Source of the DNA: a virus
Lineage: Duplodnaviria > Caudoviricetes
Length of the DNA stretch: 45,448 nt
Virus record (IMG/VR): IMGVR_UViG_3300032253_000003
Location: 1-45,448 of that record
Reading direction: 5' to 3' (one strand)
Part shown: positions 348-41,370 of the stretch, piece after piece
Numbering within the stretch: the stretch's first letter is position 1
How the letters are laid out: each line of letters starts with the position of its first letter
Program-made: the position numbers and the translations under genes
The notes under the pieces: generated by a model
The model's input: only the letters and a program-made list of their open reading frames with translations
The model's database searches: none
Told to the model about the DNA's origin: nothing

Positions 348-770
348 TTATTTATTTGTTTCAACATCAAAACAAAGCTTCATAAACCTACGTGCGGCTT
401 CGTTTCCAATTAAAAGAGCCTGTTCGTGCGGTATTTCCTCTGTCGCCTCTCTTATTGAGTCATAGCACATCATAGCTATATTGCAGTGCCAGCTATGTGC
501 GTAACTACCTTCCTTGCTTGGATTATCCTTAATCATTGCTTTTTTAATAACATCAAACGCTATTGCTGTTTCAATTGTATTCTGAAGTGAATTATTGTTG
601 TATAAGTCACATATTAATTCTGCATTCACTAACCATTGCTCGAAAATTTCAGGGTTTTCTGCTGAAAATTGACCATTGAAAATAGCTATTATTTTATTTT
701 CATCCCCTAACCCGGTGCGAATACTGTAACCAGACTTGCTGACTCTCCATTTATTCTCATTATTTATCAT
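348..770 (-). CDS. Hypothetical phage protein
   Basis: 140-aa ORF with AGGAG RBS. Confidence 0.75.
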   Translation of the reverse strand: MINNENKWRVSKSGYSIRTGLGDENKIIAIFNGQFSAENPEIFEQWLVNAELICDLYNNNSLQNTIETAIAFDVIKKAMIKDNPSKEGSYAHSWHCNIAMMCYDSIREATEEIPHEQALLIGNEAARRFMKLCFDVETNK

Positions 771-824
771 TGTTATTTACTCCTAGTTAGTGGTGGTTAT
801 TTACTCTTGTGGTCTATAAGTGGG

Positions 825-1196
825 TTATTTAATGCCAGTAAAAACAAATTTAATTCGATTCCATAAACCTGTTTCCTTAATCGCTTTGTTTTCATTAGTT
901 AAATAGCTGCACCTGTCGCTCCATTTTTGGCACTCTTCATCCAACCTATCCCATGCTTCGTATTGAATGCCTATAATGTCCTGTGCTTGCTCAGATACGC
1001 CTATAATCATGTCCTTTCTATCTGACGGCCTTCTGAACCTTCGGCCACGTATTAATTCACGTAAAATAGTATGATCTATAGTTTCCGGGCCATCATTTGA
1101 TACTACGTGAATAGGCTGATACGGTATTGTTGTTGATAAAATTTCATACGGGTCTCTATCGGTTTCAATAAAATCAATATTTTTTATTATGATCAC
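825..1196 (-). CDS. Hypothetical phage protein
   Basis: 123-aa ORF, GTG start preceded by AGGAG. Confidence 0.75.
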   Translation of the reverse strand: MIIIKNIDFIETDRDPYEILSTTIPYQPIHVVSNDGPETIDHTILRELIRGRRFRRPSDRKDMIIGVSEQAQDIIGIQYEAWDRLDEECQKWSDRCSYLTNENKAIKETGLWNRIKFVFTGIK

Positions 1197-1229
1197 AGTT
1201 AAACTCCTAAATTAAAAAATTCAGGCTTA

Positions 1230-1259
1230 TTGTGCAGATAAATTGAATAGTGTTATAAT
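1230..1259 (+). promoter_or_regulatory. Sigma70-type promoter for rightward small RNA
   Basis: TTGTGC (1230-35), 18 bp spacer, extended -10 TGtTATAAT (1251-59). Confidence 0.6.
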
Positions 1260-1265
1260 TGGGTC

Positions 1266-1392
1266 TAACGGTTGAGCTGTTGCTCGAAGTGAATACGTTA
1301 ACCTCTGTTTAAAACTATTCGCTTTAGGTCTGTCAACCAAAGCCGTTGTTAAATTATACGCCCTCTGTGATTATTTGCAAAGGGCGTTTTTA
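1266..1392 (+). ncRNA. Putative cloverleaf small RNA with intrinsic terminator
   Basis: Closing stem 1267-73/1341-47, three internal hairpins, then ACGCCCT/AGGGCGT (1358-64/1381-87) plus T-run; no ORF. Confidence 0.5.
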
Positions 1393-1422
1393 TTTATGCT
1401 AAACTATTATATCAAACCTTAT

Positions 1423-1471
1423 CTACGCCTGATGAGTCCGTTGGGACGAAATACTAAACTGTATCGCGTAG
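1423..1471 (+). ncRNA. Hammerhead ribozyme, type I
   Basis: Stem I CUACGC/GCGUAG; core CUGAUGA 1429-35; stem II GUCC-guug-GGAC; GAAA 1448-51; stem III AUAC-uaaacu-GUAU; AUC cleavage triplet ending at C1465. Confidence 0.95.
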
Positions 1472-1655
1472 GCCCATTAGTAGAGCTGCGAATGGGACAA
1501 GGCCAGCAACTTAGCTCTAAGTGTATTTACGAGTATATTTAGAGCTAAGACCGATCACGCTGGTTTGTATGTCGGATACGAAGCTCTACACTACTTCAAA
1601 TCTCTCCTCCCCCTTGGTGAGTATAAAAAAGCCTCTTTATTGAGGCTTTGTTATT
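1466..1655 (+). ncRNA. Unrecognised structured RNA downstream of hammerhead cleavage site
   Basis: Nested stems, two potential pseudoknots, CU-rich tail and terminator (see findings). Confidence 0.6.
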
Positions 1656-1656
1656 T
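1625..1656. terminator. Intrinsic terminator, probably bidirectional
   Basis: AAAGCCTC-tttatt-GAGGCTTT hairpin flanked by an A-run and a T-rich tract. Confidence 0.75.
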
Positions 1657-1851
1657 CTAAGTTCCAGTAAAGAATAACCTTGTACAAATCTCACTGCATA
1701 GATGAAAATCATCATAATTACTATATGAAGTACCATTAAATGGAATGCTTATATTTAATCCGAACTCTTTATTTGATGTTATTTCAAGCCATCCAGCCGA
1801 TGTTTCTGATTTTCTTTTGCATTGATCACATATATATTCTACTTTTTTCAT
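1657..1851 (-). CDS. Small Zn-finger-like protein
   Basis: CDQC ... HLCSEIC motifs. Confidence 0.7.
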   Translation of the reverse strand: MKKVEYICDQCKRKSETSAGWLEITSNKEFGLNISIPFNGTSYSNYDDFHLCSEICTRLFFTGT

Positions 1852-1872
1852 TATCTTTCCCCGTTAGACTGT

Positions 1873-2058
1873 TTAAACAAAATCTTCGTATATTTCTGCA
1901 TCTGGAAAAGGCCTGTACTTTCTAGCTTTAACCAAAGCATTGTTAGCCTGCGAAATATCAATAAACTCTTTGGCATTTTCTTCAAGCAATGTGCGCGGCG
2001 GGTCGCCTTCACCATCAGCCAGCCATACACCTTCTTCTAATAAAACTTTCATCTTCAT
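1873..2058 (-). CDS. Hypothetical phage protein
   Basis: ORF with GAGG RBS in leftward operon. Confidence 0.7.
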   Translation of the reverse strand: MKMKVLLEEGVWLADGEGDPPRTLLEENAKEFIDISQANNALVKARKYRPFPDAEIYEDFV

Positions 2059-2073
2059 ACCCTCTATAGGTGG

Positions 2074-2331
2074 TTATCTTTGGATGCGTGTCATTTCTCC
2101 GCACTTCTCACACTTACACCGATTTTTCTTTTCTGCCTTATTAGCTATTCTATTAAGCTCAATTATTCTTAAATTCGCTCTTGATTCACTGTTGCAGAAC
2201 TGCTCTAAAACCCACATAGGGCTTAAATGCTCACCACATATCCCACATTCAACATAACCCAGCTTATCGTCAACTAAATATGTATTGTGCTTACACTTGA
2301 AGCTGTGAGTGCGTTTAATAACTAAGTCCAT
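2074..2331 (-). CDS. Zn-ribbon hypothetical protein
   Basis: CKH, CGICG and CKCEKCG motifs. Confidence 0.75.
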   Translation of the reverse strand: MDLVIKRTHSFKCKHNTYLVDDKLGYVECGICGEHLSPMWVLEQFCNSESRANLRIIELNRIANKAEKKNRCKCEKCGEMTRIQR

Positions 2332-32521: not shown

Positions 32522-32620
32522 TGCATACTCCGAATAAGTATATCGACAATAAATAAGAAGGCAGGCAGGTTATCGAGTCCTGCTTTTCGGGGTATCCCCC
32601 TAGCCGTCAGTATTATAACA
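32522..32620 (-). ncRNA. c4-like structured leader RNA with own promoter
   Basis: TGtTATAAT then GGCUAGGGGGAUACCCCGAAAAGCAGG-loop-CCUGCCUGCC and an RBS-occluding hairpin. Confidence 0.6.
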
Positions 32621-40810: not shown

Positions 40811-40907
40811 TGGTGCGCCGGGAGGGGATCGAACCCTCACCGCTAACGTCTTAGCTTTTCCTCGACCTCGTTCAGAAGAGTGACTATACCAATTTGTCTA
40901 CCGGCGC
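40811..40907 (-). tRNA. tRNA-like gene (Leu-type scaffold) with aberrant anticodon arm
   Basis: GCGCCGG/CCGGCGC-A-CCA acceptor, GAC/GUC D-stem with GG, GAGGG-UUCGAUC-CCCUC T-arm, variable hairpin; anticodon loop 16 nt in best register. Confidence 0.8.
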
Positions 40908-41273: not shown

Positions 41274-41370
41274 TTTGGGTGGCAGGATTCGAACCTGCAA
41301 TATCCGTAGCTGCTGGATAAGGGAAGCGCTCTACTGTAGTCCCTAGTGTCTACCGTTCCACCACACCCAA
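41274..41370 (-). tRNA. tRNA-like gene (Leu-UAA-type scaffold) with 15-nt anticodon loop, no encoded CCA
   Basis: UUGGGUG/CACCCAA-A acceptor, GUGGAACGGUAGACAC D-arm, AGGGA/UCCCU anticodon stem, UAUCC/GGAUA variable stem, GCAGG-UUCGAAU-CCUGC T-arm. Confidence 0.85.

Follow-up and report, generated by a model that had tools for sequence, protein, structure and literature searches.

The window, i.e. the whole stretch of DNA analyzed here, is a 45,448-base IMG/VR virus record with a completeness estimate of 89%, a gene layout of the repressor/early-gene type and a portal protein that shares only about 25% identity with the portals of known podoviruses. Two small minus-strand genes (825-1196 and 1657-1851) enclose a gap of 460 nt in which a hammerhead ribozyme and a pseudoknotted RNA are found on the plus strand (Table 1). 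Neither gene belongs to a PHROG or Pfam family, and no relatives of the two proteins were found among viral contigs. The hammerhead and the knotted RNA are antisense to both flanking genes; no gene lies downstream on the plus strand, a terminator comes after the knotted RNA and no promoter was called for this copy by the promoter scan. Contigs from other runs match window positions 500-2300 only in short intergenic modules (797-831, 1216-1416, 1596-1658, 1848-1876 and 2049-2077), between which the genes differ among contigs, and judged from these sequences the early region looks like a set of gene cassettes reshuffled between conserved boundary sequences. Elsewhere in the window there are two 97-nt tRNA-like genes (40811-40907 and 41274-41370, both on the minus strand), of which ARAGORN calls one (tRNA-Phe) and Rfam calls one, each program only one, the Rfam match carrying inserts in its anticodon and variable regions. 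An int-alpA RNA match (38.1 bits, gathering threshold 35.8) is located at 32541-32610 on the minus strand, within the structural-gene region.

Table 1. Features of the locus in the window. Numbers of pairs, fraction of pairs formed and numbers of covarying pairs refer to the model-fitted alignment of 12 copies.
Feature	Position	Strand	Sequence or remark	Pairs	Paired	Covarying pairs
Upstream flank, second well-folding RNA-like unit	1262..1400	+	-43.1 kcal/mol, z -4.43; ends in GC stem plus U run
Inserted cassette (hammerhead and knotted RNA)	about 1417..1595	+	empty allele in contig X2
Type I hammerhead	1423..1471	+	core pattern occurs once in region
Stem I	1423-28 / 1466-71	+	CTACGC / GCGTAG; parsed
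Hammerhead core	1429-35; 1448-51	+	CTGATGA; GAAA; parsed
Stem II	1436-47	+	parsed
Stem III	1452-63	+	parsed
Cut site	U1464, C1465	+	predicted cleavage between 1465 and 1466
H1 hairpin	1473-78 / 1491-96	+	CCCATT / AATGGG; loop holds 5' strand of PK1	6	100%	1
PK1 long-range helix	1480-87 / 1582-89	+	GTAGAGCT with AGCTCTAC	8	100%	5
H2	1501-07 / 1559-65	+	GGCCAGC / GCTGGTT; encloses variable arm H3	7	89%	6
H3 arm	1510-27 / 1532-49	+	18 bp, loop TACG; length and sequence vary among copies	18	92%	11
PK2	1551-55 / 1571-75	+	bulge CCGAT with GTCGG, the loop of short hairpin H4 (1566-80)	5	92% (91.7%)	4
Flank outside cassette	1596..1655	+	CU-rich tract (~1601-1615) and two-way terminator-like hairpin 1628-1649; terminator called on both strands

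All helices named in the original prediction (H1, PK1, H2, H3 and PK2) are present at the positions listed in Table 1. Together they form a knotted RNA of ~125 nt with two nested pseudoknots: H1 and PK1 constitute an H-type pseudoknot whose long connecting loop houses a second H-type pseudoknot, built from H2 and PK2 and including hairpin H4 and the variable arm H3. The plus strand of 1466-1655 folds with a free energy of -68.5 kcal/mol (z -5.82), which was equaled by none of 200 shuffled sequences, and the minus strand reaches a z of -2.53, with 2 of 200 shuffles as good. In the minimum-energy fold, 1480-87/1582-89 forms the outer helix and H2 and H3 are present; since the folding program has no pseudoknot capability, H1 and PK2 were tested by comparison. 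The hexamers AGAGCT/AGCTCT occur four times between 1480 and 1589 of the window, in both strands of PK1 and both strands of H3, and permit alternative pairings. A coding reading of the region (open reading frames 1375-1542 and 1521-1643) was rejected because the copies differ by indels whose lengths are not divisible by three and by compensatory changes at paired positions.

Twelve distinct copies with a G+C content of 44-59% were assembled, namely the window and 11 viral or metagenome contigs. They form a small sample, retrieved with sequence patterns derived from the family's own conserved motifs, by which divergent or hammerhead-less relatives would be missed. A pattern covering H1 and its flanks returned six matches in viral contigs, of which four are real copies (L129, L131, L133 and L134) and two (L130 and L132) are chance matches in coding-like sequence. 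The metagenome scan yielded nine stretches, one being the window's own contig (L257) and another (L263) repeating L255 over the 420 nt shown, which left seven new copies (L255, L256 and L258-L262). Copy number is one per record in the window and in 4/4 other viral records. Of 120 loci retrieved with a looser pattern (GGACAA..AAGAC..ACGAAGC), a single one was a real copy, on an already known contig. Exact searches of the viral contigs with a 23-nt hammerhead string and with a 26-nt tail string gave 0 matches each, as did two patterns run against 185,579 species genomes. By blastn, window positions 1200-1700 had no match in 50,697 GenBank phage records, and the knot of L258 had only chance matches of 22-29 nt at E=5 in GenBank phage records.

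Among the copies sampled, the association with the hammerhead is strict in one direction. Two of the viral-contig patterns did not demand a hammerhead, and all of their true matches carry one (4/4 and 3/3). The converse fails: when viral contigs were scanned for hammerheads sharing the window's stem II, 127 loci were returned, and only two of these carry the knotted RNA (L010 and L024, identical to L129 and L131; blastn and model R1). When 100 of the other 125 loci were searched with model R2 and filters off, the best E-value was 0.64 and no hit was credible. In all 12 copies CUGA(U/C)GA, GAAA and a U-H cut site are located directly upstream of the knot; the CUGACGA variant occurs in one copy, and H17 at the cut site is C in 11 copies and A in one. 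Stem I has 6 bp (5 bp in L261), stem II 4-6 bp and stem III 3-6 bp. The three stems vary in sequence among the copies with their pairing kept, II and III being loop-closed and I open. The predicted cut site lies 7 nt upstream of H1 and the linker between stem I and H1 measures 1 nt in every copy.

By score, the window's hammerhead falls below the Rfam gathering thresholds, its 23.6 bits to Hammerhead_3 (gathering 48.5) being obtained via the shared core. Two relatives, L260 (36.6 bits) and L133 (34.1 bits), reach the gathering threshold of 34 for Hammerhead_1 (RF00163), and two others, L131 (28.4 bits) and L134 (25.0 bits), fall under it. The 5' part of the cassette shares with the type I hammerheads of RF00163 and those of prophages and phages the catalytic core, the three helices, the open stem I and the U-H site. 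An intergenic location in phage DNA, as observed here, also appears in the work on phage hammerheads by Perreault et al., 2011 (PMC3088659). Unlike in most of the other viral hammerhead loci sampled, the 3' strand of stem I is separated by a single nucleotide from a conserved RNA of 125 nt with a double pseudoknot. A post-cleavage lock between the new 5' end (KUAG) and the 3' tail (CUAM) was considered as well; the pairing is present in 5/12 copies (P=0.064 in shuffles) and was not accepted.

The copies were compared in a model-fitted alignment, whose model lacks H1 and PK2 in its structure, and in a structure-blind MAFFT alignment. In the former, the covariation listed in Table 1 was matched by 0/500 shuffles, and pairing fell from 90% to 31-47% when the partner strand was slid by 1-3 columns. 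In the structure-blind alignment H1, PK1 and PK2 were jointly 96.9% paired, compared with 31-53% after sliding by 1-3 columns, and PK1 by itself was 97.9% paired. The sequence of PK1 differs in most copies and the partner strand always matches. H1 and the nucleotides at the junctions hardly vary, and the third pair of H1 is C-G in eight copies, U-A in three and A-U in one. In the model-fitted alignment, U-G is found in 10/12 copies at PK1 pair 21/168 and G-U in 6/12 copies at H2 pair 38/147. Read from the opposite strand, these conserved G-U pairs would turn into A-C mismatches, and the plus strand is therefore the RNA strand, as the original prediction had argued from the window. Covariation in homologues had been set beforehand as a test of that prediction, and the pairing kept in 12 copies bears out a doubly pseudoknotted RNA on the plus strand directly after the hammerhead cut site. 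Its hairpin at 1566-80 (H4) survives in part: in the form drawn only 54% of its pairs are formed in the model-fitted alignment, and by eye a core of 2-5 bp is kept in a shifted register (G1567-C1579, U1568-A1578 and A1569-U1577 in the window).

Equally upheld is the prediction that the knot corresponds to no catalogued RNA. The knot (1466-1595) matches no family of Rfam 15 at E<=10 in the window or at E<=0.1 in the 11 relatives, and at the same thresholds the models of HDV-like, twister, twister-sister, pistol, hatchet and glmS RNAs do not match it. Riboswitch aptamers, including c-di-GMP-I and -II, gave no Rfam match at E<=10 in window 1150-1750, nor did the orphan motifs RAGATH, drum, DUF3800 and skipping-rope in the window or its relatives. 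By inspection, the order of helices is unlike that of HDV-like, pistol and twister ribozymes. We found no description of the knotted RNA in the literature searched, which did not include most subscription journals, and an earlier description is possible. A link between drum RNA and hammerheads is not borne out in the available part of PMC5737381. We conclude that the cassette very probably represents a real, uncatalogued, hammerhead-coupled RNA class.

Several known systems resemble parts of the cassette. Like the orphan motifs, which are often found in phage-like DNA and are in some cases followed by terminators, the knot has a conserved complex fold with no assigned function; unlike them, it is physically fused to a hammerhead and has no associated protein gene. 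HDV-like ribozymes, including the phage theta ribozymes, which are linked to phage tRNA genes, likewise fold into two nested pseudoknots within about 100 nt. In the knot the helices come in a different order: the loop of H1 holds only the 5' strand of PK1, and the long connecting loop accommodates the second pseudoknot. HDV-like ribozymes, moreover, generate their own 5' end by cleavage and would have no need of a hammerhead, and the knot has no HDV match in Rfam. Flaviviral exonuclease-resistant RNAs (xrRNAs) present a pseudoknotted fold at a defined 5' end, and synthetic ribozyme insulators (RiboJ) place a structured element after a ribozyme. Neither is known to resemble the knot in sequence or model, and several knot copies lack anything downstream that could be protected.

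The borders of the cassette emerged from a contig of another study (X2, 592 nt), which matches window positions 1216-1394 with one difference, continues with 15 letters resembling about 1395-1411 and runs straight on to 1596-1658. The missing 184 nt are exactly the hammerhead and the knot. In the window the cassette is bracketed by the direct repeat TCAAA (1412-1416 and 1596-1600, placed by eye), of which the empty allele, a single contig of depth 3.25 from a mosaic relative that is not an isogenic phage, has one copy instead of two. A further contig (X3, 7,466 nt) carries 343 other letters in the slot of the cassette. The neighboring genes of X2 and X3 differ from those of the window, which marks both contigs as mosaic relatives. 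Since flanks, tail and terminator occur together in a contig that is free of the cassette, the unit is a discrete, dispensable cassette. Flanking direct repeats were also found in L258 (9 nt, 2/500 shuffles) and L259 (7 nt, borderline); as a general rule they were rejected, being significant in only 1-2 of the 12 copies.

The original prediction had extended the released unit to position 1655 and had included a CU-rich tract and a terminator. Both exist in the window, where the tract UCUCUCCUCCCCCUU is located between the knot and the terminator. They are not conserved with the RNA: such a tract follows the knot in only two of the 12 copies, the window and L129, the latter having UCUUUCUCC and then a short GC stem plus U run. 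Segment 1596-1655 is present in the cassette-free contigs X2 and X3, and the tract and the terminator therefore belong to the recipient locus and the unit ends before them. On the other side, the well-folding unit at 1262-1400 is common to contigs X2, X3 and X7, has no Rfam match and is probably the transcription unit that received the cassette. By eye, an extended -10 promoter precedes it (TTGTGC 1230-35, TGT-TATAAT 1251-59), which was not called by the scan.

The 12 copies reside in unrelated genomic contexts, which together with the absence allele count in favor of a dispensable, mobile cassette. No shared protein neighbor was found when 24 neighboring proteins were compared with Pfam and 14 with PHROGs. 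Nine of the 12 copies are co-oriented with the neighboring ORFs, and five (L129, L133, L134, L258 and L259) are co-oriented with their neighbors and lie beside structural genes or terminase: the RNA is found upstream of head genes in L133 and L134, of a virion protein gene in L259 and of a tail protein gene in L129, and after terminase in L258. In L258 and L259 a Shine-Dalgarno site and an ATG are reached within about 30 nt. In L133 a terminator is situated between the knot and the next gene. L255 is antisense to both neighboring ORFs; a promoter (TTGACA-17-TATGTT) closely precedes its hammerhead, and its knot is followed by a terminator. L262 is placed between two Rfam tRNA matches; the one directly downstream of its knot (1281-1408, minus strand) spans 128 nt and thus includes a large insert, and ARAGORN calls no tRNA at this locus. 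Homing-endonuclease-like neighbors were seen for L259 and L261. L133 and L134 have further conserved features in common, namely an element like a three-way junction that immediately precedes the hammerhead (about 50 nt upstream) and hairpins beyond the knot (about 100 nt downstream), none of which has an Rfam match at E<=0.1. In the complete 51-kb phage G001 a twister-sister-like match (L269, 1821-1891; 27.6 bits, gathering 34) lies ~190 nt downstream of the knot and could represent another ribozyme on the transcript of the knot.

Taken as a whole, we see an even chance that the locus is a discrete cassette in which the hammerhead is predicted to release a knotted RNA that would be stable and function in trans, as a binder or a decoy. 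The cassette would then be a mobile RNA gene of accessory type; cleavage by its hammerhead is predicted wherever it is transcribed, and the predicted cut after C1465 would give rise to a ~125-nt knotted RNA that starts with a 5'-hydroxyl end and a leader of 7 nt. A 5'-hydroxyl end should escape 5'-end-dependent decay. The freed, compact RNA would be stable and would act in trans via its conserved fold, and it may bind or decoy a host or phage factor, for instance a host nuclease or a defense component. Self-cleavage in vivo, stability of the product and action in trans are steps that we infer, and the role as binder or decoy is arrived at by exclusion; for a trans-acting binder as such, we would put the chance at even or slightly short of it. 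This reading is favored over shielding in cis, a gated hammerhead and a second ribozyme because of the stand-alone units (L255 and the window), the copy in a tRNA array (L262), the terminators and the dispensability of the cassette. A farther-reaching version, in which a protein-less mobile RNA gene, a 180-nt cassette from which a hammerhead sets free functional, knotted RNA of a new class (ribozyme, ligand sensor or anti-defense decoy), hops between unrelated phage genomes and leaves short target duplications, is in our view rather unlikely.

If the hammerhead acted in cis, it would cut a polycistronic message, and the knot at the new 5' end would shield the downstream RNA from 5'-end-dependent RNases; such a transcript-splitting module would be the natural counterpart of ribozyme insulators and exonuclease-resistant knots. 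Hammerheads flanking phage genes are described in PMC3088659, and the co-orientation of most copies with their neighbors, the short distance to a translation start in L258 and L259, the location of L129, L133, L134 and L259 upstream of tail, head or virion genes and the constant distance of 7 nt between the start of the knot and the 5' end that the predicted cut would create all agree with this arrangement. It is at odds with the window and L255, which have no same-strand gene downstream and are followed by a terminator, with L262, whose next feature is a tRNA, and with L133, where the terminator separates the knot from the next gene. We consider splitting in cis unlikely on balance, and it stays alive because five copies adjoin structural or packaging genes. 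The knot could also be a regulatory or folding domain of the hammerhead, that is, an aptamer or protein-binding switch that gates self-cleavage. The coupling in 12/12 copies with its fixed 1-nt linker and the near invariance of H1 and the junction nucleotides are compatible with gating, and a tertiary helper is plausible given that stem I has only 5-6 bp and no obvious loop-loop partner. In L255 and the window, however, the cut would separate only the knot from a short leader and leave no evident output, no riboswitch aptamer of Rfam matches, and 125 nt with two pseudoknots are large for a mere stabilizer, which makes a gated hammerhead quite improbable.

A low probability is likewise assigned to the knot being a second, new ribozyme, self-cleaving or ligating, that together with the hammerhead excises, circularizes or mobilizes the cassette RNA. 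New self-cleaving classes came from searches near hammerhead and twister genes, according to PMC5737381, the knot has conserved unpaired nucleotides and pseudoknots like small ribozymes, the borders of the cassette are exact, and one complete phage has the twister-sister-like match downstream of the knot. This has to be weighed against the lack of a match to any ribozyme model, the different helix order seen by inspection, the lack of an inferable second cut site and the terminators after several copies, since PMC5737381 holds terminators downstream of an RNA to be at odds with self-cleavage. The original prediction had also proposed an sRNA that targets ribosome-binding sites, and the tracts of the window and L129 conform to this idea. 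The tract is missing after the knot in 10/12 copies, and the allele without the cassette still has both tract and terminator; for the RNA class in general, the proposal is thus largely refuted and we hold it to be very improbable, while the chimeric transcript of this particular phage could act in this way. Finally, the perfect 18-bp inverted repeat and the four AGAGCT/AGCTCT copies in the window might reflect an element that acts at the level of DNA (an operator, an origin or palindromes for recombination) or complementarity that arose by chance. The pseudoknot pairings covary, the plus strand folds far better than the minus strand and the AGAGCT repetition is not retained in relatives; a DNA palindrome is excluded because the G-U pairs, which would be A-C mismatches on the opposite strand, fix the plus strand as the RNA strand, and the probability left to this explanation is practically negligible.

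To our knowledge, large and highly conserved RNA folds with several pseudoknots are nearly always ribozymes, riboswitches or parts of RNA-protein machines. The knotted RNA is always fused to a self-cleaving ribozyme (12/12), has no partner protein gene, is dispensable and occurs at unrelated places in uncultured phages. Its borders, given by the cassette-free allele and the duplicated TCAAA, define the piece to synthesize. The purpose of phage hammerheads has been an open question since 2011 (PMC3088659). The cassette is a well-defined object of ~180 nt with which to ask what these ribozymes are for, and it may reveal a new kind of RNA-only accessory or anti-defense function.
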